A stretch of DNA of 64,000 nt from an uncultured archaeon (GTDB lineage: Archaea > Asgardarchaeota > Lokiarchaeia > Sigyniarchaeales > SOKP01): contig CAZALK010000010.1 in NCBI GenBank assembly GCA_964486045.1, forward strand, positions 64,001 to 128,000, read 5' to 3'. Position 1 is the first letter of the stretch. The number at the start of each line of letters is the position of its first letter. Positions 29,244 through 55,432 of the stretch are shown here, in pieces. The notes below the pieces were generated by a model, which was not told the origin of the DNA, did no database searches, and was given only the letters and a program-made list of their open reading frames with translations. Made by a program: the position numbers and the translations under genes.

Positions 29244-29366
29244 TTATGAGACTGGTTTATATAGTATTCCTAAACCAGATGCATAATTTTTTACTTCTTG
29301 CATTTCTTGAGATGTCGGTCTTCGATTTATTTCTGGATAATCAAAACTATGATACTGAGGTCTATA
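29244..29366 (-). pseudogene. Displaced allelic 3' end (40 codons plus stop) of the radical SAM gene 32007..33119
   Basis: YRPQYHSFDYPEINRRPTSQEMQEVKNYASGLGILYKPVS* vs YRPQWKSFEYPEINRRPTSQEMQEVRGYTDKLGILWKPVS*, 31/40 identical. Confidence 0.9.
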
Positions 29367-29390
29367 TTTTTTATTATTAACCAATGAAAA

Positions 29391-30563
29391 TTAAGTCCAG
29401 AACTCTCTTTTTCTTGGCAAACTTTTATCATAAATATTTATCATCTCTCTCATTAAGTCTGCTCCTAAACTGATTTGATCTCCTTTAACAGTATATTTTT
29501 TTTTAACTGGATCGTATTGGATGGAACCGGAATTAGAGACTGGTATGTTTAAGAATGGGGAATTTAAAATATCAGCAAGAAACTTGTTACTACCAGAAGT
29601 TATTCTTGATCTCCCCATTGTCCCATCCCCATCATAATAACCAAGTAGAAACGCTAACAATAGCTTCCGATGTTTAAAATGTGGTAGTCGTATATTTTTT
29701 GATTTCTTTTTTCCTACTATAAATCCATGAGAAATAAGATAGTTACAAAATTGAGTGTTAATTAATCTAATTCTTCGAAATACATGTATCTCACCTTCAG
29801 AAGTGATATATTTTTCAATACCGGGTTCATTGTTTATAATATCTAACCCAATAGAATCGGAAAACCTCTGCAGTAGAATGAAATCATCTTCTAGACACCC
29901 TACACCTAACCTATAATATGGTTCTCCTGCCTTATTTATACTATGTAATCTAATATATGCCTCAGCAAACAACCAACCTAACCAATATGCTTTTTCATTT
30001 GTATCAATTTTTTTAAAATAATCAAGTTTTAGATTAGGGTGCTGCTCTAATATACCATTTGAACCACGAGCATATAGCTTAAGTTTATTATAATTTTTAT
30101 AATTTTTAATGATAGTTCTAATATTATTCTTTACTGAATCAATCTTATCTATTAATTTTGAATCCGATTCTTTTAATATCCAATAATTAAAAGATTTTAT
30201 AAGGATATTTTCAATTTTCGTTAATAAATTTAAGCCTAATTGCTTTCCTTTTTGACTTTTTTGACATTTGTATCTAATATAATAAGGTTTTAAACCAAGC
30301 AACAGACTAAAGAATGCTGTATTTTCATTTGCTTTTCTGATACAAAAACAAGGATTTGGAATGAAAAATATTTGTTTTTTAATTGCTTTGAAAAGAGCAG
30401 TAGCATCAACAATTTTTTGTTCTTCTTCATCATTAGTAATAGTGATTCCAAAATCATCTTCAAAATTATTTATTCCACATTCTGGATTTATATTATAATC
30501 TTTACCTTTAAGCCTTACATCCTGCCTACAACTTAAGTCGTCTTTATTGTTTTTTTCGCTCAT
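29391..30563 (-). CDS. Free-standing two-motif LAGLIDADG endonuclease-like protein
   Basis: AYWLGWLFAEAYI and LAFLLGYYDGDGT motifs; ~180 aa N-terminal extension. Confidence 0.85.
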   Translation of the reverse strand: MSEKNNKDDLSCRQDVRLKGKDYNINPECGINNFEDDFGITITNDEEEQKIVDATALFKAIKKQIFFIPNPCFCIRKANENTAFFSLLLGLKPYYIRYKCQKSQKGKQLGLNLLTKIENILIKSFNYWILKESDSKLIDKIDSVKNNIRTIIKNYKNYNKLKLYARGSNGILEQHPNLKLDYFKKIDTNEKAYWLGWLFAEAYIRLHSINKAGEPYYRLGVGCLEDDFILLQRFSDSIGLDIINNEPGIEKYITSEGEIHVFRRIRLINTQFCNYLISHGFIVGKKKSKNIRLPHFKHRKLLLAFLLGYYDGDGTMGRSRITSGSNKFLADILNSPFLNIPVSNSGSIQYDPVKKKYTVKGDQISLGADLMREMINIYDKSLPRKREFWT

Positions 30564-30855
30564 AATATATCAGTCTCAATCAAGTGAATTTTACTGCTTC
30601 CTACCATGCCGTTTATTCATCAATTACAATTTTTTTTTTTATAATCGGCATTATTCAATATTTTTTATAAATTTTCTATAAAAATACAAATATTTTCATT
30701 CTGTTCAACTATATAAAAATTTATGCTTATAAATTTTACGGAATATTTATAAAGGAAGAATTTATAAGAGGATTTCAATAGTATATATAAAGGCAAAATC
30801 GTTAGGTTGAAAAAGGCAAAAATTTATAAACATAGATACTTATTTAACACCTTAC

Positions 30856-30930
30856 ACTACTATTAACTATTCTGAATGAATACCTAATACTACTATTAAC
30901 ATTTTTGGATGAATACCTGATATTACTATA
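30856..30930 (+). repeat. 33-bp tandem repeat, two full copies plus a partial third
   Basis: actactattaactattctgaatgaatacctaat / actactattaacatttttggatgaatacctgat (28/33), then attactata. Confidence 0.75.
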
Positions 30931-31261
30931 ATGTTTTATGACTCCGGTTTAGATTTGGTAAGTTAACTTATTCTTTTTGTTTAATCTTTATAAAAATCTC
31001 TCATTCAGAATTGAAGACTTTTGATGATGTCAATTTTTTTCCTTTAGTTTATGATTTTTATCACATTATATGATATGGGTTTTAAAAATGAAGAAAAAGA
31101 CTCAGTGTTTCATAGGTTTTAAATCATATAAAATATTCAAGAAAGATAAATTAGGAATCTAAGCAGAAAGTTGCTTATTCAATAAAAAAAACCCTTTCTA
31201 CAGGTAGCTCAAAATCATTAAAACTTATATTAAAGACACTTGGATGGTGTTATAATTAATT

Positions 31262-31942
31262 ATGAGTAATATTAATATTATTTTGAAGAGATGTAATGAA
31301 GTTATTAATCAAGCAGAAGATGTTATAAAAAAGAATGAGCCTAGGCGTGTAATATACATTATTACCTCAATACAAAATATACTTAATACAGTATATTCAG
31401 GTGAAGTTCCTGATTATTTGAATTATGAATATTTTATTGAACATGTTTTTCCAAAAATTTCAAGTCAGCCTGAATATATTTCAAAATATAAAAAAATAGA
31501 TAAACTTGTTGTTTACTTGGAAACATTTAAAGCCTTTAGAGATGACTTAGATAGTGGTTTAATTTCACACCTTTCTAATATTATATCTGTGGATATTTTT
31601 AGTAGTTTGATTGATCAAGCAACTCAACTTCGAGAAAATAATACTGAACCATTGAATCGAGCTGCATGTGTACTAACCAGAATAGTGTTGGAAGATACAT
31701 TATTAAGATTAAGTAGAAATAATAACCTCACACTTTCTAATGAAAAAGCCTCTATAGCTAATGACGAATTGAGGAAGAAAAACATCTATGGCCAGGCAAA
31801 GTGGAGAGAGATCCAATCATGGTTAGATATTGGAAATAAAGCTGCTCACCCTGATCCAGAGTTTATGACAATTAGCGAAATAGATATAGATAATATGATA
31901 AATAATGTGAGGAGATTTACTGAATTATATCTCCAGAATTAA
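31262..31942 (+). CDS. DUF4145/HEPN-like protein
   Basis: AACVLTRIVLEDTL...WLDIGNKAAH. Confidence 0.7.
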   Translation: MSNINIILKRCNEVINQAEDVIKKNEPRRVIYIITSIQNILNTVYSGEVPDYLNYEYFIEHVFPKISSQPEYISKYKKIDKLVVYLETFKAFRDDLDSGLISHLSNIISVDIFSSLIDQATQLRENNTEPLNRAACVLTRIVLEDTLLRLSRNNNLTLSNEKASIANDELRKKNIYGQAKWREIQSWLDIGNKAAHPDPEFMTISEIDIDNMINNVRRFTELYLQN

Positions 31943-32006
31943 TTTAAGAAAAACAATGAGATGATAATCTGTTATACTAATAAGGAAAACTCAATAATTT
32001 TCAAAA

Positions 32007-33119
32007 TTAAGAAACCGGTTTCCAGAGAATTCCTAATTTATCCGTATAACCTCTGACTTCTTGCATTTCTTGTGAAGTAGGTCGACGGTTTATCTCAGGA
32101 TATTCAAATGATTTCCACTGTGGACGATATTGAGACATTATGTTTACGACAGCCTTCGATAACTCTTTAGCTACATAATCCAAAATCGGTTTAGAGCAAC
32201 ATTCTATATGTTTGGGCATAACAAGATGACGGATGATAATTTCACCACTACCCTCATCATGCACCCGTTTATGATTTCTAGCAATGACATCGAAGTAGTT
32301 ATCAATACCAGAATATTTTTTGGCACATTGATTATTACCATACTTCCAATCTGGCAACCAAAAATCCATCAAATCAATAATGAGAGATAAAGCTTTATCA
32401 GTCAAATAAAAATTGGAGTTCCAAAGTTGTGTGATATTTGACTTCTGATAAAGTAAGTTTCCAATTATTGTATGAATATTTGGAATTGGGTCTCCTCCCA
32501 CATAATTAATATTTATTGCTCCTTTTTTGGCTAAATTATCTGCTATTACTGCTAATTGTTTGCTATCCACTTTTTGGGCTATGTCATCAATTTCCTTTTT
32601 ATTTTTCCATGCTTGTGAAATATCGTAATTTTGGCAGAAAACACACCCAAAATTGCAACCTTGAAAAAAAATTGTCCCACTGGGAATAAGGGGTGTTTCT
32701 TCTCCCATATGTAGAAATGCTGAAGAAATATATGAATCTTTACTTATTAAACAAAATCCTACTTGTCCATCAATCCTATTCGTTTCACATCGACGCTCAC
32801 AGTATATACAACTTTCAAGATATTTAATGGCTAGAGTTTCGATTAAATGGATATATGACCTAGGAGAAATTTTACGAGATTTAATTTCTTCGATGTTCTT
32901 TTTTAATAAATCATTAAACTCCCGTGATTTTTTTTTTAGTGTTATTTCAAGATTCTCAATCGAATCACTTGATTCATAATCACAATCAATAGTTTTAGCG
33001 ATTAAAAACCTTGCGATTTGTGAGCCATCAATAATCCCTCGATATCTTGAAAAGCGTTTAAGGATATCCTCATTTTGCCATACCGAATCAGAATCTGGTC
33101 TAATGATTCTAAAAACCAT
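32007..33119 (-). CDS. Radical SAM protein, PflX-like (pyruvate formate-lyase activating enzyme family)
   Basis: CIYCERRC, HMGEE, GCNFGCVFCQNYDIS, RHLVMP, NIMSQYRP. Confidence 0.9.
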   Translation of the reverse strand: MVFRIIRPDSDSVWQNEDILKRFSRYRGIIDGSQIARFLIAKTIDCDYESSDSIENLEITLKKKSREFNDLLKKNIEEIKSRKISPRSYIHLIETLAIKYLESCIYCERRCETNRIDGQVGFCLISKDSYISSAFLHMGEETPLIPSGTIFFQGCNFGCVFCQNYDISQAWKNKKEIDDIAQKVDSKQLAVIADNLAKKGAININYVGGDPIPNIHTIIGNLLYQKSNITQLWNSNFYLTDKALSLIIDLMDFWLPDWKYGNNQCAKKYSGIDNYFDVIARNHKRVHDEGSGEIIIRHLVMPKHIECCSKPILDYVAKELSKAVVNIMSQYRPQWKSFEYPEINRRPTSQEMQEVRGYTDKLGILWKPVS

Positions 33120-33144
33120 AATATGGGAAAAAAATCTTTGTTAA

Positions 33145-33876
33145 CTATCTTTCAAAAGATAACCATTCAATAATATTTGACAAAAATTTTAAATTGTCAC
33201 CAGAATCAAGTCCAAAATCACTGTCTTCCGTTATCCAATCAGATGAACCAATTGATACACATCTACCTTCATAAAAACGGGAAACCGCACAAATCGGGAC
33301 TGGCCCAATTGCTCCTAATTCTTCATCGATGTAATATTTAAATTCTGATTTTTGAGAAGTCACAATTATATCATCTACATCTTCCTCAGAAATTGTAAGG
33401 AAAGTACTGTTTGGGAATACTAACTCGGTAATCCCCTCAGTAATAGGATGATTGAACATTTCAGTAATTAAGACATTGTTTTTTTTAACTAAAAAATTAG
33501 ATGAAGATTCTTGTATCAAACCATTCCAAAATCTCCGAACACCTGTAACCTTATATAAGACCCTAATAGATCCTTTTTTCATGGATATATCTCTATCCCC
33601 TCCATCTCCACTAGTTAAAAAAATACTACTCCCCTCTCCTACAAATTTTTTAATTGCTCTCAATTCATCATGGGTGAATTTATCATCCTTTCCGTTAATA
33701 GTATGTTGAATATTTCCTATGAATAATATGTCAAAATCTTCAAGTTTTTCGAACTCAATTGGACCTTCATTTTTATCAATATATTCTATTTCATAACCGT
33801 CATCTCCTAAGGAAAATTCGGGGAATTCTTCAATTTTCTCCTTATGAGATAAATCTACTATTATATGGGATGACAT
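33145..33876 (-). CDS. GIFT-domain protein (IFT52 N-terminal/GldG-like)
   Basis: KFTHDELRAIKKFVGEGSSIFLTSGDGG, HPITEGI, GRCVSIGSS...DNLKFLSNIIEWL. Confidence 0.65.
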   Translation of the reverse strand: MSSHIIVDLSHKEKIEEFPEFSLGDDGYEIEYIDKNEGPIEFEKLEDFDILFIGNIQHTINGKDDKFTHDELRAIKKFVGEGSSIFLTSGDGGDRDISMKKGSIRVLYKVTGVRRFWNGLIQESSSNFLVKKNNVLITEMFNHPITEGITELVFPNSTFLTISEEDVDDIIVTSQKSEFKYYIDEELGAIGPVPICAVSRFYEGRCVSIGSSDWITEDSDFGLDSGDNLKFLSNIIEWLSFER

Positions 33877-34082
33877 TGTAATATTACGGGATTAAAGCAA
33901 GGTTTTTCTATGTTAAGATAAAATAATTACTTTAATAAACGTATGTAATTTTTATAAATTTTATCTATTATAATTCTATTTCTTAATTTTCTCTTTTAAA
34001 TTTTATTAAAAAAGAAATAGAGAACGTAAAATTTAAATAATAGGAGAACGAGTTCATTTAGATTAAATAATTTAAATTGGAT

Positions 34083-34769
34083 TTATATAGGGATAAATTC
34101 GCGCTCTACAGGACCTTCTTTTTTGATGATAACAATATCAATCCCATTACCACTGAACATATCTCGAATAATGCTAGATGTAACAGCTTTTCTAATGATT
34201 TGTTTACCCACTTCTACAGATAAATTATCCTTATATTTCGCTTCTAAAACACCATAAGAAAAATTTTGTCCACTTCCAATTGCACAATATTTTTCATTTA
34301 AAATGGAACCATAAGATCCGATGCTTAGAATTGTTGGACCTTCTCTTTCAGTTAATCCTCCTAACATTAACCCTACTTGAAAGGGAAACATCTTATTAGA
34401 ATATAATATGTTTGATAACATTTTTCCAGCAGATTTTACCAAAATTTTTTTATTTTCATGGTTTAACTGGAACATTGTAGTTTCTGCACGTAACACATCT
34501 GCAAGATATTGAGCATCCGCTGGTGAACCTGCTATAGTCATCCATATATGATCTTGAATTTTTAAAACTTTTTCCGCAGTTTTACTTGCTACAAAATAAC
34601 CCATCGATGCTCTTTTATCTGTTCCGAAAATAACTGCATCTTTACAAGTCAAACCTACTGTCGTTGTTCCAGTTTTCAAGCGGTTTGCAGTAATATTCTT
34701 TTCTATTTTTTGGGTCCTCTTAATTTCAAATCCAAATTTAGAAGAGTTTAATTTTTCTTCATTTCTCAT
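34083..34769 (-). CDS. psmB: Proteasome beta subunit
   Basis: Propeptide then KTG|TTTVG, DKRAS, GSG, IRDMFSG. Confidence 0.95.
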   Translation of the reverse strand: MRNEEKLNSSKFGFEIKRTQKIEKNITANRLKTGTTTVGLTCKDAVIFGTDKRASMGYFVASKTAEKVLKIQDHIWMTIAGSPADAQYLADVLRAETTMFQLNHENKKILVKSAGKMLSNILYSNKMFPFQVGLMLGGLTEREGPTILSIGSYGSILNEKYCAIGSGQNFSYGVLEAKYKDNLSVEVGKQIIRKAVTSSIIRDMFSGNGIDIVIIKKEGPVEREFIPI

Positions 34770-34984
34770 ATGGTCATTTAAGGAGTTATAATTTAATAAA
34801 TTTCTTCTAATTTAATATAAACATTGGATGATCAAACCAAGAAAATTTATCAGAAATAATTAATAAATATTGAGATGATTTTATTAGTATCTACATCAAC
34901 CAAATTATTAACTAAGGAATTCTCAATAAGAGTCTAAATGTTAAAAACAATACTTTTAAAACAATTTTAAATAATCTTTTTTAA

Positions 34985-35917
34985 ATGGTTGAATTTATCG
35001 GGTTAGTTTTTACAACTTATGCTGTATTCACATGGGCAATAGTTTCACTTGTTTATAAAACAGGATTAGAGAAAACTGACCCAAAAGCAAATTTATTTTT
35101 TAGATTATGTTGTGTCTCAATTGGTTCACTTTTTTTCTCTCTAATTTTCGGAAATTTTCTAATTTTTAGTAGCATGAATAATTCTGAATTGGGATTATAT
35201 CTATTAGCGTGTCTTATATCAGGAATTAGCGTCACAATTGGGGATTTACTGTATTATTTCTCATTAAAGAAAATAGATGCCTCCCGTGCGTATCCTCTCG
35301 TCCAGCTCTCACTTATTTTTGTGTTTCCATTTAGTGTCTTTTTATTTGGTGAAGAATTGAAACTTTCAGTATTATTTGGAGGTTTATTATTCTTAACTAG
35401 TGTTTTTATACTAAGTTCTAAGGATAAAAACGAAATCGAGACTAACGGAAGTTTAAAAAAAAAAGAAGCTGAAAATGTTATTATTGGAGCCGTGTTCGCT
35501 GTATGTGCTGCCTTTCTTTGGGCTGTAGCGATTATTTCTTTTAATCAAGCAAGAATTATTTCGAATGATGTATTCGTAACAAATTTCTTAAGAGTGGCTA
35601 TGGCAACAATTTTATTCCTTATATTAGGAATATTCAAGCCTGTTTATTTTTCGGGTTTTAAAAAGGAAAGTCGAGGAAATTTAAAATATTTTATATATAT
35701 AGGAATCGCAGGCATAATTTCTTTAGGATTGGCAGATTCATTATTTTATAAAGCAGCAGAAATCAATGGGTTAATTCTAACAACAGCTATTACAATTAAT
35801 ACACCTTTCGTAAATTTTTGTTTCTCAATTTTAATTTTAAAAGAAAAGTTTCGCAAGAGGTTTCTAGTTGCGGTTGGGTTGATAATTTTAGGTAACTATG
35901 TCATATTATTCATTTAA
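34985..35917 (+). CDS. EamA/DMT family transporter
   Basis: 10 TM helices in two repeats; SLKKIDASRAYP, LFGEEL, ILKEK. Confidence 0.88.
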   Translation: MVEFIGLVFTTYAVFTWAIVSLVYKTGLEKTDPKANLFFRLCCVSIGSLFFSLIFGNFLIFSSMNNSELGLYLLACLISGISVTIGDLLYYFSLKKIDASRAYPLVQLSLIFVFPFSVFLFGEELKLSVLFGGLLFLTSVFILSSKDKNEIETNGSLKKKEAENVIIGAVFAVCAAFLWAVAIISFNQARIISNDVFVTNFLRVAMATILFLILGIFKPVYFSGFKKESRGNLKYFIYIGIAGIISLGLADSLFYKAAEINGLILTTAITINTPFVNFCFSILILKEKFRKRFLVAVGLIILGNYVILFI

Positions 35918-36074
35918 TTCTATTAAAAATAATTATACTTTAACTCTTGCTCAGAAAGCTATTTAAATCAAAGTCAAAAATAATAAAAAATAAACAACAA
36001 CAAATAAAAATGAAAGAAATAATTTAATTATTTAATTAGATTAGCACAAAATTAAAATTCTAGATGAAAATAAT

Positions 36075-36755
36075 ATGATGTTATTCTTACATAAGGATAA
36101 AATTCGAGCAGACAGCTATATTACAGGTTTTTATGTTTTAGGCTATGTACTTTTTTTTGTGTTCTTTAGATTAGAAGTGATAATGTCATTGATAGTTTAT
36201 CCTTTCATAGCATTATTTTTTTATGGTATAATAAAAATAATTGATGGGACCAACAAAAGAAACAGAGGAAATATGAAAAATCTCAACAGAGTTTTATTTG
36301 GATTATCTTTAATAGCCTTTTCAATAGTATTCCTTAACTTTTTTCTTAGATTACCTAACGTATCTTTTCAAAATACAATCCATTTAGCTGCCTATCCAAT
36401 TCTTATTGTAGGAGTTTCAAGCATAATTAAAGGGAGTTTAATTGAAGTTTATTCAATAAAGTTTCGGTATATTAATATCCTGATTGGAGGAGTATCGATA
36501 GTAATCTGTATGCTAGCCTTCCTCTCTTCTCGTATATTTCCACCTATTCTTAATATTTTTCACGTATTTTCTCTCACTATTATTCTCATAGTTAATATTG
36601 TAAGCAGAGCCGCGCTATATTTAAGCGAGTACAATTTATCGGTTTTGAATTTCAGAAATTTTAAACTCTTCTTCTATATAATCTCTGATTACTTTATTTA
36701 TATAAACAAGGATGGGAATATTGTTTTGAATAAACTGGCACAAAATATAAAATAA
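36075..36755 (+). CDS. Hypothetical multi-pass membrane protein
   Basis: About 6 hydrophobic segments. Confidence 0.7.
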   Translation: MMLFLHKDKIRADSYITGFYVLGYVLFFVFFRLEVIMSLIVYPFIALFFYGIIKIIDGTNKRNRGNMKNLNRVLFGLSLIAFSIVFLNFFLRLPNVSFQNTIHLAAYPILIVGVSSIIKGSLIEVYSIKFRYINILIGGVSIVICMLAFLSSRIFPPILNIFHVFSLTIILIVNIVSRAALYLSEYNLSVLNFRNFKLFFYIISDYFIYINKDGNIVLNKLAQNIK

Positions 36756-36781
36756 AATTCAACCCATAGACTTAAAATTAT

Positions 36782-37972
36782 TTAAGATAGTGCATTTTCA
36801 ATACGATCCATTCCCTTTATGATATTTTCACGAGAGATACAATAAGAAAAGCGAATATATTCTTCTTTTTCCTCGGGAATTTTTTTTCCAAAGTATGTTC
36901 GGGAAAGAACTGCGACATCCAAATTTTCTAAAAAATATTCTTGCAGTTCTAAACTGTTTTTAAGGTTCAATTTCTTACAAGCTCCTGTGACATTAGCAAA
37001 TATATAAAAAGCTCCTTTAGGTAAGACAGCTGTGATTCCGTCTATTCTATTTAATCTTTTATGAATAAGATCCCTCCGTCTTTTAAACTCTTTTATCATG
37101 GAAATTGAAGGTGCTTTATCCCCGGTAATAGCAGTGGTTCCTGCCATTTGTGTAAATGTTGCTGTGCAAGAAATTGTGTTTGTTAACCATCGTGCAAAAT
37201 ATGCAGCTAAATCTTCATTAACAATAGCATACCCTAATCTCCATCCAGTCATAGAAAAGAACTTACTAAATCCGTCTAAGATTATGGTTCTCTCTAACAT
37301 CTCTGGTAGAATGGCTATAGTTTTATAATTAATATTATCATACACAATATTAGAATAAATCTCATCAGAAAGAATCCATAGATCATTTTCTACAGCAATC
37401 TTGGCTAAAATCTCTAAATTTTTTTGATTGAGTACAGATCCTGTTGGGTTTTGGGGGCTGTTGATGATAATCAATTTTGTTTTGTCAGAGATTTTGTCTA
37501 ATAGACCTTCAATATTATAGTTCCATTCTTCACTTTCTAGTAATTGTGCAGATATAGCCTTACACCCGTGAACATTTATTAAACTCTCATAAATTGGATA
37601 TCCAGGGTTCGGATATATTACCTCATCTCCCGGATTTGTGCACGATAATATGGTTAAATCCACAACAAATTTAGCACTAGGTAAAACTACAACATTTTTA
37701 GATGTAACATTTAATCCTCTGTTTTCATTCATGAACTCAGCAATTCCACTCCTTAACTCAGGAATTCCAGCAGATATTGAATAATGTGTGAAATTCTTCT
37801 TAATTGCTTCAATACCTGCTTTTTTAATATGTTTTGGTGTATCGAAATCGGGTTCACCAATTGAGAATGAGATTATATTTTTTTTCCTTCTTTCTGGAAA
37901 ACTTTGAATACGACTTAACACCTCAAAAGCAGTTTCAGTACCTAGCCGATTTAACCTTTCAGCATAATTCAT
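36782..37972 (-). CDS. PLP-dependent aminotransferase, class I (aspartate aminotransferase-like)
   Basis: GEPDFDTP, NSPQNPTG, SDEIY, GFSKFFSMTGWRLG. Confidence 0.95.
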   Translation of the reverse strand: MNYAERLNRLGTETAFEVLSRIQSFPERRKKNIISFSIGEPDFDTPKHIKKAGIEAIKKNFTHYSISAGIPELRSGIAEFMNENRGLNVTSKNVVVLPSAKFVVDLTILSCTNPGDEVIYPNPGYPIYESLINVHGCKAISAQLLESEEWNYNIEGLLDKISDKTKLIIINSPQNPTGSVLNQKNLEILAKIAVENDLWILSDEIYSNIVYDNINYKTIAILPEMLERTIILDGFSKFFSMTGWRLGYAIVNEDLAAYFARWLTNTISCTATFTQMAGTTAITGDKAPSISMIKEFKRRRDLIHKRLNRIDGITAVLPKGAFYIFANVTGACKKLNLKNSLELQEYFLENLDVAVLSRTYFGKKIPEEKEEYIRFSYCISRENIIKGMDRIENALS

Positions 37973-38170
37973 TTTAAGATCAAGTTACCCTTTTTTAGTT
38001 CCTTTTTCCTATTTAACAGAAAAGATTTAGTGTTATTTAATGTTTTATAAAGAAATGACTACGGGGAAAGATATCCCATAAAATTAAGTGAAGTAGTTGT
38101 TCAATCAGACCCTAAGATGAATTTCCCGAATTAATTAATTAGATGGTTTTTTCAGAAGGAGTTAAGAAAA

Positions 38171-42553: not shown

Positions 42554-42566
42554 TTTAATACTATCC

Positions 42567-45503: not shown

Positions 45504-45558
45504 TTCAAACATACCAAAAAACTTTTTTTCCATATTCCTTTATCATTATTGTTAACAT

Positions 45559-46857
45559 ATGCAATTACGCTTGAAAAAAAGAAAAAAGGAATCGATACCA
45601 CTCAGTCATAAATATACCTCAGATTTCGATTCAGTCATTTTGATTGTTATCTGGAATTCACTCGGATTTTTTTTTGTAGACTTTATTATCACATATATTA
45701 TTAGTCAAGTCTTAGGTGCTTCTGGCGTTGCTATTGGGCTTTTCCCTGCATTTTTAATGTTTGGTATGTTAATCAGTTCATCATTTGCAGGTTTTTTAGC
45801 AGATCGTTTCCCAAAACAAAAATTAATTATGATTGGTTCATTTGGGCGCGGATTATCATATTTTGGACTTTATTTTTCAATTATTACCAAATCCTTAACG
45901 GGAATGTATATCAGTGCGTTTGCCCTTGGAGCAGGAGCGATGTTATTTTGGATTCCATTAGATACACTTATTTCAGAGAAGTCCTCGAAATATCATCGTT
46001 CTTCCGCTTTTGGGCGCAGGAGATTTGCTTTAGGAATTGGACAAGTGATTGGTGCAATAGTAGGTTTCACCATTTTTGCATTGACAAATTATTTCATACC
46101 GGATAATATTTTTCTAGTTTTTTGTGCTATTCCATTATTTGGAGTTGCTAATTTTTACGCTGGAATACGGTTCTACAGAAAAGTTAATGAAGATAATAAG
46201 TTTCAAGATGGTGAAGATCAAAGATCTACGATTGATAATCCCGGTTTATCAGGTAAATCAGAACAAAAATATGTATTAGGAATAACCTTATTGTTCTTCG
46301 CAATGATTTTAGGTGCAATTAATGCTGGAATTTATAGACCCTTTATATTACCAATCATCTTTCAAAATATAAGTAGTAATGTAAATTTGATCTCTTGGTT
46401 TTTTCTCCCTTCTACCATTATCGGAACATTAATTGCACCAAAATTAGGGAATCTTGGAGATAAACTTAATCCTTATCTTACTGTCTCAATAACAAGTTTA
46501 ATTGGAGGAATTTTAACATTACTTATCATTTTTTCTAAGGATATATGGACTTTTTCTTTGTTATTGGTATTCGATAACACAATCATACTTGCATCTGGAT
46601 TTGTATTTATTAATTTTCTCAGCCGCATTTCCATTAAGGACAGGGGTAAAATCTTCGGTTTAATTAGCACTTTCGAGTCAATTGGATTTATAATAGGCCC
46701 CATCCTCGGTGGTTTAGTTTGGGATGCTTTTAGCTCCAGTGCCCCTTTTATTATTTCAATTATTGTTGAATGGTCCTTAATTCCCTTTTTCGCATTTGGG
46801 ATATGGATTCTCAACCCAAAAATAGTAGAAGTATTAGAAGACCAAATTATAAAGTGA
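45559..46857 (+). CDS. MFS transporter
   Basis: GFLADRFPK, DRGKIFG...GPILGG. Confidence 0.9.
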   Translation: MQLRLKKRKKESIPLSHKYTSDFDSVILIVIWNSLGFFFVDFIITYIISQVLGASGVAIGLFPAFLMFGMLISSSFAGFLADRFPKQKLIMIGSFGRGLSYFGLYFSIITKSLTGMYISAFALGAGAMLFWIPLDTLISEKSSKYHRSSAFGRRRFALGIGQVIGAIVGFTIFALTNYFIPDNIFLVFCAIPLFGVANFYAGIRFYRKVNEDNKFQDGEDQRSTIDNPGLSGKSEQKYVLGITLLFFAMILGAINAGIYRPFILPIIFQNISSNVNLISWFFLPSTIIGTLIAPKLGNLGDKLNPYLTVSITSLIGGILTLLIIFSKDIWTFSLLLVFDNTIILASGFVFINFLSRISIKDRGKIFGLISTFESIGFIIGPILGGLVWDAFSSSAPFIISIIVEWSLIPFFAFGIWILNPKIVEVLEDQIIK

Positions 46858-46888
46858 AAAATAAGTAGATAAAAATCCTTTTAATTTA

Positions 46889-47425
46889 CTAATACCAATC
46901 AACAAATTCTTCGACCATGTGTCGTTCTCTTTGCTTATTAACAGCCTTTACTCTAGCTTCATCAATATGACCTATTGCGATAACACCCATTAATTCGTAT
47001 TTCTCTAGAGAATATTTAAAAATCTCGTTAACCTCATCCTTTTTATTTAGAATTTCACCAATCCATGTAGCCCCAATGTCTTCATGAGCATGAACGGCCA
47101 GGAGGATATTTTGCATAAAGGCTCCAATCGCTTGAATATCTTTTGTTCTATCATAACCTTTCTCTAAATCCAAAAAAACAACTAAGCTTGCATAAGCTTC
47201 TTCAATAATCCCTCCATATTTAGTAAGTTCTGAAACCATTCTTTTAACGGTGGGATGAATAACAACGCAAACATGCCATGGTTGTGAATTTCTCCCAGAA
47301 GGAGCCCATCTACCGCAATCTAACCAGTCCATAATTGTTTTTTTATCAATTTTTTGGTAAACAAAGCTTCTAATGCTTTTTCTTTCTTTGATAAATTCAA
47401 CAATATCATTTTTAATTAGATCCAT
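46889..47425 (-). CDS. Nitroreductase family protein
   Basis: RKSIRSF, WAPSGRNSQPW, QNILLA, GATWIG. Confidence 0.92.
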   Translation of the reverse strand: MDLIKNDIVEFIKERKSIRSFVYQKIDKKTIMDWLDCGRWAPSGRNSQPWHVCVVIHPTVKRMVSELTKYGGIIEEAYASLVVFLDLEKGYDRTKDIQAIGAFMQNILLAVHAHEDIGATWIGEILNKKDEVNEIFKYSLEKYELMGVIAIGHIDEARVKAVNKQRERHMVEEFVDWY

Positions 47426-47573
47426 ATTTGTAAATTGGTAAATCTTACATTAAATATTTTTCCCTCTCGGATAATATGTAGATGTTATCACCATATTTCT
47501 TCTATTTTTGTTTTAGATACCTTATTATCTAAATTAGTAAGCAAATTTTATGTTATTTTCTTGGGGAAACAAG

Positions 47574-47918
47574 ATGGGAAAACTTTGGAGAAAAAAAAAT
47601 GATAATGACCTATTGAGCTCCCCACAAGAGGCAATGGGATTCTCAAAAGAATATTCTTCGCTGCTACATAACTTTATCATAAAGAAGTACGACTTCTCAA
47701 ACCTCAACCAAATAGAGGATATTAAAAAGCAATTATTAGGTCGCAGAATACTACTGATTAACGTAAAAGAAATTTTGGAGAATGGAGAAGTGTCAGAACT
47801 AAAAAGTTGCATAGAAGAATTGAAAATTTTTTTAAGAGAGAATGGAGGATCTATAGGGCGTCTTGGTGATCAATATCTCATATTAACACCAAATTCTCAT
47901 ATAAAAATAGCAAACTAA
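47574..47918 (+). CDS. sepF: Archaeal SepF-family cell division protein
   Basis: IKKQLLGRRILLIN...IEELK...GGSIGRLGDQYLILTP; ATG 47574 preferred over 47550. Confidence 0.75.
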   Translation: MGKLWRKKNDNDLLSSPQEAMGFSKEYSSLLHNFIIKKYDFSNLNQIEDIKKQLLGRRILLINVKEILENGEVSELKSCIEELKIFLRENGGSIGRLGDQYLILTPNSHIKIAN

Positions 47919-47935: not shown

Positions 47936-48436
47936 TCACCTTTCATTAGACTTATGCTTGATGATCAAATCCCGAAATACCTTGAGATTCTTCTTCCTTT
48001 GGTCAATATAACCCTCAGTCCACCCTCTCGTCTCATCGTACTCCCATGTAGTAGAGTAAAGAATCGCATCGTACACCTCAAAGGGCATTCTTGTTTTGGT
48101 ATAAAGTATTAATAAGCCAAGAATCTGATACCCGATATATATATCATCCATATCCGCAACCCAACTACCCTTAAGGGGTGGTTTTGGTCTCAAAATGGGG
48201 TTCTCGACAATCTCTTTAAATTTATGAATATAATTTAGAATCTCATCCAAGAAATATTCCAGTACCTTACTGGTGATTACCTTTCCAAGAGAAGAGTAAG
48301 AAGTTTCGAAATCAAGCCCACAGAGCTCAAGGAAAAACCTCTCCCATTGATGTTCATGATCTAGCTCCCTAATATCAAAAGGATTTAAACCTCTGCTTAT
48401 TAATTCATCCATTACCTCCAACATATTATTCTCCAT
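47936..48436 (-). CDS. Hypothetical protein (islet 2 cargo)
   Basis: 166 aa ORF with ATG start. Confidence 0.65.
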   Translation of the reverse strand: MENNMLEVMDELISRGLNPFDIRELDHEHQWERFFLELCGLDFETSYSSLGKVITSKVLEYFLDEILNYIHKFKEIVENPILRPKPPLKGSWVADMDDIYIGYQILGLLILYTKTRMPFEVYDAILYSTTWEYDETRGWTEGYIDQRKKNLKVFRDLIIKHKSNER

Positions 48437-48504: not shown

Positions 48505-48873
48505 TTATTTATATTTCCCTAAATAGTATCCTGATAAACTAGAATATGATATGATTATGTCATCAAAGGATAATGACTCGTAATTCCGGTCATTAGTTGC
48601 GCGAAGAAGCGTTTCGTAAAACAATTTTAGCTGAACATTAGATTCAAACTGAACTTGGAAGGTATTCTCCATAATATCTCTTGGATCTTTACCCCACCTA
48701 AGTAATTCTACCGTCATATCCACTCTTAATAGAGCCTTCAAGGTAGAAAAGAGATAAATATGGTTTTCTCCTAGTATATAAGTTGCGAGTTGATGTATGA
48801 ACAATTTTGAGTTGAGAGAATTCTCTGAGACTCCTGCACGTGATGACACCAAATTCTCATATAAAAATAGCAA
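48505..48873 (-). CDS. Hypothetical protein or fragment (islet 2 cargo); start uncertain
   Basis: The called TTG start falls inside the antisense of the repeat, so the gene is probably 5'-truncated or starts further in. Confidence 0.4.
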   Translation of the reverse strand: MLFLYENLVSSRAGVSENSLNSKLFIHQLATYILGENHIYLFSTLKALLRVDMTVELLRWGKDPRDIMENTFQVQFESNVQLKLFYETLLRATNDRNYESLSFDDIIISYSSLSGYYLGKYK

Positions 48874-48887
48874 ATTAATAAGTAGGA

Positions 48888-49613
48888 TTATTTAATTTTC
48901 GGAATCAGTAAAACAAAATTGCTTCCTTTTGAAAAATCCCCTTTAACTTTATCTTCAATCCAAATTTCACCCTTATAGGAATCAACCAAATTCTTAACTA
49001 AAAATAATCCAAATCCCATAGTTTTTCCATTATTTGGGCTTGTATTCTTCAGTTTAAAAATATTCTTTTTCCTTTCATTATCGATTCCAACACCATTGTC
49101 TATAAATTCCATTTTCAAATATTTCTTCTTATGTTTACACACTTCAGAAATTTTGATTGTTATTTTAATGATTTCATTTTTATTATGTACAACCGCATTG
49201 ATTAATAGATTTTCGAACACATCTTGAAGGAGTGAATTCGCATTAACGTAATATTCCGTGAAAGAAGTATTAACATTAAACGTTACATTCTCTTGAAGTG
49301 GAGTCTTTACAAAATTAAGTGCAGTCCTCAATAAATCACATACCTCAATTTTATGAAGATTCAATTGATCCTTCTCTAGTTGAGAAAGTTTATGGACATT
49401 TGATATAAGTCTAAATCCCCTTGAAGTTTGCTGTTTAATTGTTCCAAGAAGATCTTTTACTTTACCCTTTCGTTTTGGATCATTGATGTAAAGATCAGTA
49501 AGTTCACTTGAAGTTCTTATATTTTGTAAAATCTGATTTAAATCGTGGATCAACAAGTTAGATAGGAGATTGTCTTTTTCCATTTGATTATCTGAATTAA
49601 AAATTTCAAACAT
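48888..49613 (-). CDS. Histidine kinase core (HisKA plus HATPase) with no sensor domain
   Basis: HDLNQIL, VFENLLINAVVH, DNGVGI, GFGLFLVK. Confidence 0.88.
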   Translation of the reverse strand: MFEIFNSDNQMEKDNLLSNLLIHDLNQILQNIRTSSELTDLYINDPKRKGKVKDLLGTIKQQTSRGFRLISNVHKLSQLEKDQLNLHKIEVCDLLRTALNFVKTPLQENVTFNVNTSFTEYYVNANSLLQDVFENLLINAVVHNKNEIIKITIKISEVCKHKKKYLKMEFIDNGVGIDNERKKNIFKLKNTSPNNGKTMGFGLFLVKNLVDSYKGEIWIEDKVKGDFSKGSNFVLLIPKIK

Positions 49614-49967
49614 GAATTTAAGGTCTTTACAAATCTGTCTTGATATTTATATATTAATTATTAAAACAAGTATTTAAATAAATAGTTGTTTAATTTTTCA
49701 TGTCAGTCATATGAAAAAAAAGAAATATTAGGAAATGTTGGAGAAATTAAAATAAGTGGAAGAATTATTTTATGGTGTTTATATTAACACTTCTAATAAT
49801 TGTAATTTTGATGCATCATTATCTTGTTTCAACTATAAGTATTTCTCCGATACTAAATTCCCCCTGTGCTCTAAAACAGTTAAATTTTGAATTATTTACA
49901 TTCTAATTTATGATAATTTAAAATATAAAAACTATAATGGTAAATGTTTGTATGCAACTCCCTCCTA

Positions 49968-51488
49968 CTATTCCTTGAAAATTATAATATCATCCCATAC
50001 AGATCTCTCTTTCCCGTAAGGATCATTTTCTACTTTTATATCCTTCCCGAATATCATGGTTGCTCTATTATCTCTATATTGAGCCCATTTTGGAACTTCT
50101 TTATTATTAGGGTTACCGTTTCTAGCGAACGAAATCCAACAATCCATCATTTTTCCACTAAGTTCCTCAGTTTCTTTATTGGATTCAGGGAATAACTTGA
50201 AGTTCACATTCCGAGGTGTGTCTAATGTACCGAATACGAAGGGAATTTCAATTGCGTGAACAGAACCTAACGATCCATTTCTTATAGGTGAAGGATAAGT
50301 GAACATATACATATAAGTGTCAGGTTGATTTTTCGATTGCATTTCTGCTAATAATGTGGATGGTACACGGAAAAATGCATCAGTTACTATAGCACTATAT
50401 ACCTCGGTAGGATTTTCCCTCGTCTCACTATAAAGATCAATTATTTCGCGGACTTTTTCTTCGGATTGTCCCATTGGTTTCATCATTAAATTCAATCTAT
50501 TGAATAATGCTTCAGTATTTTTTATGCCAGGATACCATAATTCCCATAATCTCATTTCATCTTTATTAGTACCGTGTAAAATTTCAATGTTTTTTGTTTC
50601 ACCATCAAGCACAGCTTTTAGAGGATGTTTTGGTAATGTTTTACCGTCAATGAGAGGGGAATACCCTAAAGCAAATGCAGTTCCTCCTTCCAATACTTGC
50701 TGATCCATCTTTGTCTGAGCCTTGATAATCTCCTCTGCCGAAATTTTTCTTAAACTGTCAATATCATCTTTTTCGATTTTCAGAAGTGAAGCTAACCTTT
50801 GTGCCGTTGCTATTGCCCTACCCTTTTGGTAACCAAGCGGATTTGTGCTTCCAGATTGTGGGATAATGCGATTAAACAAACCCTTAGCTGTAGGCATGCC
50901 AAGTAAACAACAAATTGCTCCCGCACCAGCAGATTCACCAAATACGGTAACATTCTCTGGATCTCCCCCAAAGTTCACAATATTTTCTTTAATCCATCTT
51001 AACGCTTCGATTTGATCGAGCAACCCAACATTTGCCGAAAAATTAGGGGCATCGGGAAGATAAAGAAACCCTAAAGGTCCTAATCTATAATTAATTATAA
51101 CTATAACTACATCACCACGAGCTGCTAAAGGAATTCCATCATAATTATTCGCTGAACCAGTCTTATATGAACCTCCATGGATCCAAAACATAACAGGTCG
51201 TTTCTTATCATCGGATGCTGGAGTCCAAATGTTAAGTGTAAGGCAACTTTCTTCCCTCTGTGGAGGAGCAGGATCTGGAGTGAAAGGACTGGGAGGTTGT
51301 GGAGCAACAGGACTCAACTCAGTTGCTTTTAACACACCATTCCATGAGTGCTTCGACTTTGGAGCATTAAATCTTAATTCCCCAACAGGAGGTTCCGCGT
51401 ATGGAACTCCTTTATATATTTCTATACTTTTATCAATATATCCTTGTAGCTTTCCACTACTAATCTCAATAATTTTTGTTTTTTTCAT
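49968..51488 (-). CDS. Type-B carboxylesterase (PnbA-like)
   Basis: WIHGG, NYRLG, FGGDP, FGESAGA, GSVHAIE. Confidence 0.95.
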   Translation of the reverse strand: MKKTKIIEISSGKLQGYIDKSIEIYKGVPYAEPPVGELRFNAPKSKHSWNGVLKATELSPVAPQPPSPFTPDPAPPQREESCLTLNIWTPASDDKKRPVMFWIHGGSYKTGSANNYDGIPLAARGDVVIVIINYRLGPLGFLYLPDAPNFSANVGLLDQIEALRWIKENIVNFGGDPENVTVFGESAGAGAICCLLGMPTAKGLFNRIIPQSGSTNPLGYQKGRAIATAQRLASLLKIEKDDIDSLRKISAEEIIKAQTKMDQQVLEGGTAFALGYSPLIDGKTLPKHPLKAVLDGETKNIEILHGTNKDEMRLWELWYPGIKNTEALFNRLNLMMKPMGQSEEKVREIIDLYSETRENPTEVYSAIVTDAFFRVPSTLLAEMQSKNQPDTYMYMFTYPSPIRNGSLGSVHAIEIPFVFGTLDTPRNVNFKLFPESNKETEELSGKMMDCWISFARNGNPNNKEVPKWAQYRDNRATMIFGKDIKVENDPYGKERSVWDDIIIFKE

Positions 51489-51698
51489 AATAATTCACCT
51501 TAGATTTATATCTAAATAAGTTTATCTTCTTTTTTGAAAAATTTCGATAAACCTTTCGATTTGGTCTATATGCTATTTTTTCTTTTATATCCCTTATCTA
51601 ATGATATTTCATCTCAATTCTTAAATATTAAAAAAATATTTATTTGATTAAATAATTAAAAACATAACGTAGAATATTTTAAACGAGATTTCATTTCA

Positions 51699-52010
51699 AT
51701 GTCATCGCAAAATACTATTAATCGTACACTCTCGAAAGCCATTCTTAAGGACGAGGTAAACATCAAATTAAAAATTTGGAATACATATTTAACGGGAAAA
51801 CTTATTCAATTCGATAACTATATGAATTTAATCGTTGAAGATGCGAAAGAGATCTATTTTGGTCGGGGGGGAAAACGTTCTAAGGATTTGGGAACTGTGA
51901 TGATTAGGGGGGCAAGTGTGATTTTCATAGGCCAGGATCGTGAAAAACTAGTATTCACTGATGATTCAGAGGAAGATTTAATGCATCATTCAGAGGACGA
52001 GGGAGGTTAA
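51699..52010 (+). CDS. Sm-like archaeal protein (LSm/SmAP)
   Basis: GKLIQFDNYMNLIVEDA, LGTVMIRG; conserved position upstream of rpl37e. Confidence 0.92.
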   Translation: MSSQNTINRTLSKAILKDEVNIKLKIWNTYLTGKLIQFDNYMNLIVEDAKEIYFGRGGKRSKDLGTVMIRGASVIFIGQDREKLVFTDDSEEDLMHHSEDEGG

Positions 52011-52015
52011 ATGAA

Positions 52016-52237
52016 ATGACTAAAGGTACTCCAAGCAAAGGTAAGAAAAATAAGGCACCTAGCCATAAAACCTGTAGACGTTGCGGACATCATTCATATC
52101 ACCGGAGCAAGAGGTTTTGTGCGTATTGTGGATTTGGACGATCAGCCAAAATAAAAAAGCCCTCGTGGCGCAATAGACACCGTGCGTTTAACGGTAATAA
52201 GTCGTTTTACCGCAATAAAAGAAAAGCATCTGCATAA
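52016..52237 (+). CDS. rpl37e: 50S ribosomal protein L37e
   Basis: MTKGTPS, CRRCG...CAYCGFG. Confidence 0.96.
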   Translation: MTKGTPSKGKKNKAPSHKTCRRCGHHSYHRSKRFCAYCGFGRSAKIKKPSWRNRHRAFNGNKSFYRNKRKASA

Positions 52238-52816: not shown

Positions 52817-54388
52817 ATGACAGAGTTTCGAATTAACAAATTTATCACTTTGGAGCTGGAAGGGAAAGATACAGTAATTTATGTATCCGGTAAACGATTC
52901 CAGCAATGCATGTACCTATTTTTAGTTATTCCCGTTGATAACCTTGACCAGATTTATGAGATTGAATCTATTGACGAGGTTGCTGAAGAACTTGATAGAT
53001 CTATTAACCCAAAATATAGCAGACATATGAGAATCTCACCAGAAGAGGAGTTCTGGGCGCACTGTAGCAATATTCAAGCGTTCTATGAAAATAACTATAA
53101 CACCAAGATACTTCATAGAAACTTGGCGTTCCCGCTATTGATGAAGCTTTATGAAGCCGAGGATCCTAAAGCCATAAAAGTATTTAAAGAAGAGATTGCT
53201 CAAAGGCTTTCAAGCGATCATGAAAATACGGTTCTCTTTTTGTTGGAAAATAACTATCAATTTTTTCTCACAACTGAAGAATTCGATACTGTTTATCATA
53301 GTCAAGACTCAGAAAAAAAAACCCTGATTAAGGAATTCATACACGACAGATTTAACGATAATAAGACTGACATTGAACTACAAAATAAGCTTTTTGAGTA
53401 TATCAAAGTGATGTGTTCGAAGCAAGAATTACAAAAATATCAATATGTGACGTTCAATGAGAGAAAATATTTTGTTAGAGAAGGAGGATTGACTATTAAT
53501 GAAAAAGGAATTATTATTGACAGAATTGGTCAGATAAAAGGGTTATCTAAGCTCAAAGGATTGAAGAGACTGACGATCCTACGCACTTTGATTACTTCAA
53601 CCGCAGGATTGGAAGGTCTAACTCAATTAGAACACCTAGATTTATGTGTAAATAGAGTCAAGATAATAGAGGGATTGAATACACTAATCAACCTGAAGAG
53701 TTTGAAATTATCATATAACCAAATCGAAAAAATATCTGGACTAGAAACTCTGAAGAACTTAGAAGAATTACTTTTAAATTCCAATCAAATTACTGAGATA
53801 AAGGGGCTTGAATCCCTTACAAAATTAAAGAAGTTAACCCTACATTCTAATTTAATCAGTGAAATTAAAGGGCTAGCCACCTTATTAAACGTAGAGCAAC
53901 TTAATTTAAGTCGCAATAAAATCTCAAGAATTAAGGGTCTGGAAGGTGTTATAAAATTAAATTATCTAGACCTTAATAGGAATAGCATAGAGAAAATAGA
54001 AGGTTTGACATCCCTTAAGGAATTAGAAAGCCTTGTACTAGAGAACAATTGCATAAGTAAAATAAGAGGACTAGACAATCTTAGTAAACTAAAATCCCTT
54101 AATTTAGGAAAAAACAAAATCACAGAAATGGAGGGATTAGATACTCTAAATTGTCTTACTTCGCTATGGCTCGATAAAAACCAGATTCTTGAGATGAAAG
54201 GGTTAGATGAACTTAGAAATTTGCGTGAAGTTAACCTACAAGAAAATTTAATATACGGTATTCGCGGGATTAATGAATTTAAAAGCCTAGAATATTTAAA
54301 CCTTTATGGTAATAAACTTATAGAAGATATAAATCACGAATTCGAAGGATTTTTTGAAATAAGAAGGGTATTAGATAAACAGAAATAA
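52817..54388 (+). CDS. Leucine-rich repeat protein (SDS22-like 22-aa LRRs) with a conserved N-terminal domain
   Basis: About 12 LxxLxLxxNxIxxIxGL repeats; N-terminal domain shared with 58789..60393. Confidence 0.9.
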   Translation: MTEFRINKFITLELEGKDTVIYVSGKRFQQCMYLFLVIPVDNLDQIYEIESIDEVAEELDRSINPKYSRHMRISPEEEFWAHCSNIQAFYENNYNTKILHRNLAFPLLMKLYEAEDPKAIKVFKEEIAQRLSSDHENTVLFLLENNYQFFLTTEEFDTVYHSQDSEKKTLIKEFIHDRFNDNKTDIELQNKLFEYIKVMCSKQELQKYQYVTFNERKYFVREGGLTINEKGIIIDRIGQIKGLSKLKGLKRLTILRTLITSTAGLEGLTQLEHLDLCVNRVKIIEGLNTLINLKSLKLSYNQIEKISGLETLKNLEELLLNSNQITEIKGLESLTKLKKLTLHSNLISEIKGLATLLNVEQLNLSRNKISRIKGLEGVIKLNYLDLNRNSIEKIEGLTSLKELESLVLENNCISKIRGLDNLSKLKSLNLGKNKITEMEGLDTLNCLTSLWLDKNQILEMKGLDELRNLREVNLQENLIYGIRGINEFKSLEYLNLYGNKLIEDINHEFEGFFEIRRVLDKQK

Positions 54389-54680
54389 AAGAAATATAAA
54401 ATAAAAAAAGATATAAAAACTAACTGAAGACTTGAGATGCTAGCCCAAATCGTCTGATAAAAGTTCTCCGAATAAAGCCAAAAGAAGATCTAACAAAATT
54501 ACTCAAAAAGAAATCGAAGAAGTTACCCTAAAACCCGACCTTTTTAATCAGAACTTAGACCAAGAATACAATAGAATTTTTCCCCTTTTAATTAGAAACA
54601 TAAAAAAGAAGTATAACCTCAAAGAACTAGGTAAAGTATGGAAAGAAAACAACCACCTCATTTTTAATTTTGAGATTGTC

Positions 54681-55112
54681 ATGGAAGCCGACGTTCGAAA
54701 GCTAAACGATAGACGAAAGGAATTATCGCTAAAAATCATTAACGAAACCAACCCGAAAATTATTCGGCAATACCAATCCAAGATAGAAAAGTTAAAAACA
54801 TTTATTCTTAAGTACACAGGCAACGTTTACACCCCACTAATTAAAAAGTATAACTCGCTAAAAGACACTATTAATACACAGTTAGAGCAGTTTTGTTTTA
54901 CCGTTGTGGATGCATTCAATACAAAGCTTGAAAAAGTTTCGAAAAAATTTGCTATGAATATTACCGAATTCTATTTTGATGACGGTTTAGAACTTCGAAT
55001 AATAATTAAGAATAAATCATCAAGCATTTTTCCTCTTAAAAGCCTACAGTTTAAAGATTTGGATACTAAACACAAAAAAGTAATAATCCAGATCCTCAAG
55101 ACCGGTTTATAA
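54681..55112 (+). CDS. Hypothetical protein (islet 3 cargo); 5' end probably damaged
   Basis: Frame open from 54444 with no canonical start; nearest ATG (54437) is out of frame. Confidence 0.5.
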   Translation: MEADVRKLNDRRKELSLKIINETNPKIIRQYQSKIEKLKTFILKYTGNVYTPLIKKYNSLKDTINTQLEQFCFTVVDAFNTKLEKVSKKFAMNITEFYFDDGLELRIIIKNKSSSIFPLKSLQFKDLDTKHKKVIIQILKTGL

Positions 55113-55432
55113 TGATAAGTTCACTACTTGATGCATTTACTACTATTATTAAATACTCGAAGTAAAACGGGGATCGGTCTTTTAGTCTTAGTTCCCAACG
55201 TTCTTCCTTATTACAATATGATAAGAGATTTATCTTTCTGTTTTTGTCTCAAACTTTCAGTGAAAAATTAGGCATAAATCGTTTTACCGCAATAAAAGAA
55301 AAGCTTCTACGTAAGTTGAATATTTTAGTATAAAAATCTTATTCTTAAAGGTTTAAGAGATATTAATTATTATTGAGCTTAAAATTATGATTAATTATTA
55401 CTCTTTAATTCAAATCTATGCCATAAAAATAA

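Follow-up and report, generated by a model that had tools for sequence, protein, structure and literature searches.

Conserved genes of an uncultured Lokiarchaeia archaeon (Asgardarchaeota; Sigyniarchaeales) appear to have exchanged their 3' ends for foreign ones, gaining unrelated cargo genes in the process. In the window, the whole 64,000-nucleotide stretch analysed here (assembly GCA_964486045.1, contig CAZALK010000010.1, positions 64,001 to 128,000), a radical SAM gene (RS), sepF and rpl37e are each followed by cargo and then by a second, spare copy of their own tail, all within 26 kb. We suggest that these islets are 3'-end replacements from linear donor DNA, driven at RS by a homing endonuclease; as a whole we consider this explanation moderately probable. 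Judged from the sequence comparisons, homing at RS is quite likely, while the extension of the RS geometry to the sepF and rpl37e islets has a somewhat better than even chance of being correct.

The three tail duplications had been reported in an initial annotation made from the sequence alone, and they are genuine and lie where it placed them. The RS spare (positions 29244 to 29368, reverse strand) matches the gene tail at 88 of 125 nt, and its 41 codons comprise 15 identical, 17 synonymous and 9 changed ones. At sepF the 33-nt spare (48846 to 48878, forward strand) carries a single, synonymous difference (32/33 nt; the next-best match of this tail on both window strands reaches 24/33), and at rpl37e the 41-nt spare (55274 to 55314, forward strand) carries four (37/41 nt, next-best match in the window 29/42); both repeats include an identical run of 26-29 nt. 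All three spares are in frame, open and keep their own stop codon, with similarity ending 0-1 nt past it, as had been described. Many synonymous differences had also been claimed, which is true of RS but not of sepF and rpl37e, with their one and four differences. No tRNA or Rfam family was matched in the islet region, in line with the reported lack of a tRNA target, and none of the genome's five tyrosine recombinases lies inside the three islets. The islets are thus free of an integrase of this type, as proposed, but not of every mobility enzyme, since the RS islet holds a candidate LAGLIDADG endonuclease.

Comparison with relatives reveals which copy is native. Below, G000 denotes this genome, with contigs C3, C7, C8, C13 and so on, L and G numbers denote loci and genomes of relatives, X numbers denote sequencing runs, and negative numbers count nucleotides back from the stop codon. 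Among 96 dereplicated loci of the RS gene (PflX/activase-like, Pfam Radical_SAM; 32007 to 33119, reverse strand), 54 are empty, 37 occupied and 5 undecided. The closest relatives, whose FKBP proteins are 82-86% identical, are all empty, and their RS tail and downstream DNA resemble the spare; the spare and the native intergenic DNA behind it match empty L071-L073, L142, L143 and G028. At empty sites RS lies 65-190 nt from the FKBP-type isomerase gene, which here stands beyond the spare (28046 to 29161, reverse strand). At rpl37e (Pfam Ribosomal_L37e; 52016 to 52237, forward strand) all 31 of 31 genus relatives are empty, with a roadblock gene 101-279 nt behind, and the closest of them (G028) resembles the distal copy, which in the window is followed by the roadblock gene at 55433. 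Empty-site alleles therefore exist at both genes, and the distal copy is the displaced native tail, as had been suspected. The further suggestion of a hybrid gene with a foreign functional tail is supported in that the RS gene tail matches occupied loci and the spare empty ones.

The foreign RS tail has a recognizable history. A tryptophan five residues before the stop is present in 34 of the 37 occupied loci and in 4 of the 54 empty ones, and occupied loci are dispersed across a quickly inferred RS-body tree, which needs 25 changes (mean after shuffling 25.2). Tight linkage can account for this association if the insert-bearing tail is one old lineage moving sideways, and these alignments mark the RS site as an apparent hotspot with a single travelling (W-type) tail lineage. 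Around 12 RS loci share a short motif past the stop and continue into differing cargo, and tails are stacked in L074, L079 and L284, where, in L074 and L284, the longer fragments (from about -300) represent W-type tails that a later round pushed aside. A stray 170-nt W-type RS tail, 95% identical, with one frameshift and the conserved post-stop motif, was also found at C13:20286-20455, in a variable region of about 35 kb with unrelated defence-like genes. In the empty loci L071, L072 and L143, a W-type patch within RS gives way to native sequence again in the last 60 nt or so, as the scar of a lost islet or by gene conversion.

Contigs from sequencing runs, compared over window positions 27500 to 47400 and thus at the RS islet of the three, argue against a chimera of two strains, the objection that the initial annotation had raised against itself. 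The genome is a metagenome-assembled genome with 7.8% contamination, yet RS-islet depth in the likely source run is 253-274, equal to that of the flanks (274-279), and in a second sample the FKBP gene, the spare and the LAGLIDADG gene lie on one contig, with different DNA past 31057. Comparable scars, six and two, occur in the single-contig genomes G050 and G055. Moreover, mismatches between tails and spares throughout the genome fall 136, 117 and 299 times (of 552) on codon positions one, two and three, an excess at third positions that identifies the spares as diverged working alleles and not decayed copies. A chimeric origin is hardly credible. The RS cargo is modular, as the second sample and a minor strain differ in islet content: the minor strain (depth 14.6) retains the spare and skips 29408-30974, so that the nuclease gene is gone. 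The HEPN/DUF4145-like cargo gene (31262 to 31942, forward strand; Pfam DUF4145 at E 5e-4, below the cut-off), an exchangeable module, is swapped out in strain X2 and has another context in run X3, and a homolog of 96% identity sits at the RS site of L144. Runs X3 and X4 contain other organisms and do not enter into any statement on habitat or strains. Exact look-up of the window FKBP protein returned no other contig, and no same-species empty site was obtained in this way.

The geometry of the RS joints bears on how the DNA was joined. L290 and empty L110 are identical at 57-60 of 60 nt up to -180, foreign sequence sets in near -136 in L290, and its spare, which starts at -123, agrees with the empty allele from the outset. 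For L115 against L120 the corresponding positions are about -142 and -119. In the window, identity painting against the closest empty relatives and occupied loci reveals a foreign W-type mosaic of some 300-360 nt in the RS gene (92-100% like L079/L080 at -360 to -240, 95-97% like L077 over the last 120 nt), compared with a spare of 125 nt. The foreign tract thus begins upstream of the joint and the remnant is wholly native, as predicted for products of homology-facilitated illegitimate recombination, and this geometry points to entry by homologous recombination on the left and to a right end joined separately to the tail of the recipient. Among native-type spares, the starting points are -125 (window and L285), -124 (L091), -123 (L290 and L297) and -119 (L115), with shorter ones at -113, -107, -99, -96 and -89, down to -87; four unrelated joints fall within 7 nt (-119 to -125), and no native-type spare is longer.

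The model put forward initially, in which small circles with a foreign tail and cargo integrate by a single crossover, correctly predicts which copy is native and which is foreign. Under this model the foreign tract should also not outrun the spare, and the left end of the spare should be of donor origin, whereas in three hosts the RS tract is the longer of the two and the spare is native right from its first base. The W-type patches of L071, L072 and L143 resemble excision between repeats but fit gene conversion too, and the near-identical sepF repeat is compatible with circles as with any model. A crossover at a shared core was considered and set aside: the excess identity expected at left edges is slight (p about 0.02), a value that counts somewhat towards circles and may equally reflect C-terminal divergence, and no identical core was seen at the L290 and L115 joints. 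No circular joint is listed in the contigs of four runs, which lose rare forms. We regard integration of circles as improbable.

Within the RS islet, the gene most likely to be responsible is an intact, free-standing gene with two LAGLIDADG motifs (29391 to 30563, reverse strand), identified from PF14528-bearing homologs, alignment, a structure model and Foldseek. By alignment, the acidic positions of the motifs are E201 and D313, with A for G after E201. The alignment-based model (pLDDT 84.9) predicts a helical N-terminal part and two domains of LAGLIDADG fold, and its top Foldseek matches are all LAGLIDADG enzymes, e.g., I-SceI and I-DmoI; Pfam at E<=5 returned LAGLIDADG_3 only, and no intein or zinc-finger domain. 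The eight proteins of its clade (support 100) that could be placed in context are all at RS, mostly convergent and 3-22 nt behind the RS stop. Sister clades sit behind other genes that have a spare, namely acs (4/5), PGM (3), an M28 peptidase and a 1066-aa gene, and most target-linked LAGLIDADG genes are convergent, -30 to +43 nt from the target stop, with the spare behind. Of 80 genome loci, 50 had evaluable stand-alone genes, and 7 of these (14%) lie in such islets, compared with 3 of 210 random genes (1.4%), although the kin are non-independent and represent five target genes. The initial annotation had counted LAGLIDADG genes as cargo; at RS, with a clade confined to this site and a LAGLIDADG fold, the gene is better read as the best candidate driver.

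This genome has three LAGLIDADG genes that we found. On C14 (37183-51372), the gene of a 1,421-aa LAGLIDADG_3 protein and a 563-aa oxidoreductase-like gene overlap at the stop of the latter, whose 110-nt spare tail follows 12.4 kb on, which makes this a second candidate homing element. The third LAGLIDADG gene is found at a contig end, 18 nt away from a convergent gene. The acs gene of this genome has a spare tail and no nuclease.

Several observations weigh against homing and call for caution. Of the 34 occupied RS loci of W type, 25 show no LAGLIDADG gene in the DNA available, and only 2 of the approximately 35 islets of this genome contain one. Cargo of the GNAT, HEPN and AAA ATPase kinds keeps to the RS site as well, and fidelity to a locus is therefore no proof of homing by itself. 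The window nuclease gene is co-oriented with RS and distal, not convergent beside the stop; the stretch between it and the HEPN gene contains no older tail, and the A for G mentioned above stands in its first motif. Most distant LAGLIDADG homologs have no spare, and the functional tails of LAGLIDADG-bearing loci differ mutually around -125, so that no single immune sequence is visible.

Taking both sides together, we propose the following scenario. The donor would be linear DNA of related Lokiarchaeia, by whatever route it may enter. At RS the LAGLIDADG enzyme would leave the incoming tail intact but cut empty alleles some 120-130 nt upstream of the stop, and the break near the gene end would be repaired from the donor DNA. 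On the left, homologous recombination within the gene would introduce the donor tail, its stop and the donor DNA behind. On the right, the founding of an islet would require an illegitimate join of cargo to the recipient's own tail, while in later rounds the donor's spare could cross over with the recipient tail and so serve as a second homology arm. Repeated rounds would pile up and swap cargo, and the nuclease would often be lost. At sepF and rpl37e, one-sided homologous plus illegitimate recombination may have acted, or the islets may be what remained after deletion of a driver; such a loss is seen directly in the minor strain, which keeps its spare without the nuclease.

Neither the sepF nor the rpl37e islet contains an intact nuclease. 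Behind sepF (Pfam SepF; 47550 to 47918, forward strand), the window is collinear with L181 through the whole cargo to 48845 (86% over 1.1 kb). The cargo consists of a 166-aa gene (47936 to 48436, reverse strand), with homologs behind a GIY-YIG-type gene in L181, L183 and on C8 of G000, and of the last 114 codons of such a gene (48505 to 48845, reverse strand). L181 has this gene complete, at 579 aa, with a GIY-YIG match at E 4e-4, below the cut-off; the window keeps codons 467-579, abutting the spare and 84% identical to residues 467-579 of P0001, and lacks the nuclease domain. The cargo is thus cut mid-gene, at codon 467 of the donor gene, exactly at the joint. Two points temper the reading of this as an illegitimate join: the joint may be a later deletion, and a genome-wide screen for broken donor genes gave few clear cases. 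The single difference at sepF leaves native and foreign copies indistinguishable. The spare lies 10 nt from a convergent histidine kinase gene; a kinase homolog stands directly behind sepF in L056, and the downstream region varies among relatives. A 440-nt piece near a contig end (C22:474-913), 90% like the 3' part of the window kinase gene (48888-49613), may be a stray fragment or belong to a second strain.

The GIY-YIG-type gene was considered as the homing enzyme of the sepF islet, which we now find rather doubtful given its resemblance to a toxin tip and the lack of a sepF spare in L181. A 9,447-codon open reading frame (ORF) on C8 ends in a homolog of this gene, followed by the same small partner gene; from this homology, a toxin tip with its immunity gene and a homing enzyme appear equally likely. 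C8:1-28344 and C7:142-28497 are each taken up by an open frame of some 9,450 codons, that on C8 having a GIY-YIG-type end followed by a 162-aa homolog of the sepF cargo, an arrangement like a giant toxin and its immunity partner.

The rpl37e cargo combines a leucine-rich repeat (LRR) gene of a large genome-wide family (52817 to 54388, forward strand) with a truncated copy of a dispersed 0.8-kb repeat (54459 to 55270, forward strand). The repeat carries a 5'-truncated ORF (143-174 aa), which had no Atlas match above 0.80 and is not assigned to a family by it. At least seven partial copies exist in the genome (among them on C10, C13, C7, C23, C3 and C11), three of them behind LRR genes, and similarity to one copy runs to 3 nt before the rpl37e spare; beside four other copies there was no spare tail.

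Tail duplications extend far beyond the window. A screen of low-copy genes recovered 25 orphan 3' fragments downstream of their own gene, as compared with 5 upstream 3', 3 downstream 5' and 4 inverted fragments among the controls; mirror-image 5' heads upstream numbered 5, about one fifth of the tail rate, in keeping with the prediction of a homology-based route. Merged screens gave about 35 candidates of 0.4-16 kb with unrelated cargo, including elongation factor 2 (EF-2). In five other Lokiarchaeia, sampled at 400 kb each, 12 tails and 5 heads were found, compared with 4 control matches, so that the genome-wide check proposed initially shows the pattern to be frequent here and recurrent in relatives. 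Across the Asgard genomes screened, the rate is 3-15 events per Mb. At about 35 events per 5.2 Mb, we estimate some 0.5 clusters like the present one, and three islets in 26 kb can be expected somewhere by chance. Tail duplications around cargo are found, for instance, at EF-2 (C13:92102-95775), an rps7-like gene (C13:50077-51950), a nadB-like gene (C17:74690-79098) and acs (C21:23692-26369). Spares range from 18 to 390 nt across genes, some opening with 20-50 identical nt, and no DNA motif or element is common to the islets of this genome. With the Pfam scan covering cargo of the window, other nuclease types in the roughly 35 islets are only partly excluded.

Such diversity raises the question of whether any nuclease is needed. 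Homology-facilitated illegitimate recombination followed by ordinary recombination could suffice, with LAGLIDADG a passenger such as a defence or toxin domain. The absence of nucleases from most islets, the varied spare lengths lacking a common motif and the 5' mirror cases all suit this explanation, as does the fact that LAGLIDADG and GIY-YIG domains also terminate very long proteins in this genome; the same model was proposed for effector arrays of Vibrio (PMC5361080). However, it leaves unexplained the upper limit and clustering of the RS spare edges, the enrichment (14 against 1.4%) of LAGLIDADG genes in islets and the five target-specific clades, and we hold it to be unlikely, if less so than circles.

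Targeting of a 3' end with restoration of the gene is also the classic layout of integrase elements, as at icd with phage 21 and e14. An origin from site-specific elements of a tyrosine or serine recombinase, now decayed or mobilised in trans, would suit those spares that start with 20-50 identical nt. Cis-mobilizable elements (CIMEs) are small, recombinase-free islands with direct repeats. The H47 island of Escherichia coli is likewise small and recombinase-free, and is mobile through long imperfect direct repeats (PMC3191183). In contrast to such elements, the present islets have dozens of unrelated targets (about 35) with no common motif and variable left edges, and RS has neither a shared att core nor a fixed crossover, L290 and L115 included; the lack of a core holds for RS, whereas the sepF and rpl37e repeats do have their 26-29 identical nt. 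The five tyrosine recombinases (serine recombinases were not searched) matched nothing in the relatives' RS and rpl37e loci fetched, and about 150 relative loci gave no integrase match. On these comparisons RS does not look like an integrase element, and a site-specific origin of the islets is very improbable. An integrase link is possible for one islet of this genome. C23:57646-58887 and C25:2013-3233 hold solitary tyrosine recombinase genes that are related to each other (42% identical), and the one on C23 sits between a CDC48-like gene (49483-51762) and that gene's orphan tail (59931-60114).

Several known systems resemble the islets. WHO elements at FBA1 of Torulaspora and Lachancea strand 3' fragments that start near the cut site and are proposed to act as a second homology arm (Coughlan et al., 2020, PMC7282813). 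Like the RS islet, though unlike those at sepF and rpl37e, they place a free-standing LAGLIDADG gene behind a conserved gene; the target's 3' end is foreign with a discordant history, the stranded fragments begin near one position, and stacking and stray target fragments elsewhere in the genome recur. They differ in targeting yeast FBA1, where here RS, acs, PGM, the M28 peptidase and others each have their own clade, and in an intein-derived domain with zinc finger, neither found in the window nuclease. Here, moreover, the setting is an archaeal chromosome, the nuclease is usually convergent, unrelated cargo is abundant, most islets are nuclease-free and cleavage is predicted. Mobile ORFs (mORFs) of fungal mitochondria, which confer a foreign C-terminus on atp6 in Allomyces and on atp6, atp9, cox2 and nad3 in Glomus (PMC3630166), share with RS the hybrid gene, the endonuclease ORF, a displaced native C-terminus near the sister-species allele and mostly synonymous differences. 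They reside in organelle DNA, whereas the homologous loci here come from prokaryotic chromosomes of Promethearchaeota, with the ORF out of phase with the host gene and cargo of up to several kb. In type VI secretion arrays of Vibrio and in Rhs loci, homology-facilitated illegitimate recombination with C-terminal displacement likewise uses one homologous anchor and one illegitimate joint, pushes the old 3' end downstream and is followed by spread through ordinary recombination (PMC5361080); those are toxin loci, as opposed to housekeeping genes throughout the genome that retain their function. By analogy, the RS islet looks like a WHO or mORF element in its working while belonging to neither family. 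In the Lokiarchaeia and archaeal literature covered, which leaves out most subscription journals, no paper on the tail-replacing layout was found; the present analysis adds the geometry of strain pairs, the clustered edges of the spares, the clades specific to single targets and a count over the whole genome.

Two further features of the window may be recorded. The G+C-richer intergenic region at 40780-41000 contains words resembling the anticodon arm and T arm of a tRNA, with nothing reported by ARAGORN or Rfam; contigs of other organisms skip about 105-112 nt there, and an intron-split tRNA is possible. Short direct repeats of 57, 42 and 46 nt (71-80% identical) at 7074-7823, 3191-3547 and 21872-24430 probably lie within paralogous coding modules.

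If the proposed explanation is true, a homing strategy of yeasts and fungal mitochondria also works on Asgard chromosomes, at several housekeeping genes, and RS with its LAGLIDADG gene offers an enzyme and a target that can be tested on natural alleles, both empty and occupied. The C-termini of marker genes such as ribosomal proteins and EF-2 can be foreign in Lokiarchaeia and should be interpreted with caution, and insertions of this kind are overlooked by integrase-based island finders. They would represent an integrase-free route for the gain of accessory families, including LRR and HEPN proteins, kinases and toxin-antitoxin pairs. More tentatively, and at somewhat less than even odds in our judgement, the Lokiarchaeia could harbor intron-less homing elements that have radiated into one LAGLIDADG clade for each housekeeping target and that swap gene tails and drag cargo along; the stranded tail would let islets cross species by host recombination alone, whether or not they still carry a nuclease, and this may be a main route by which these archaea gain accessory genes.

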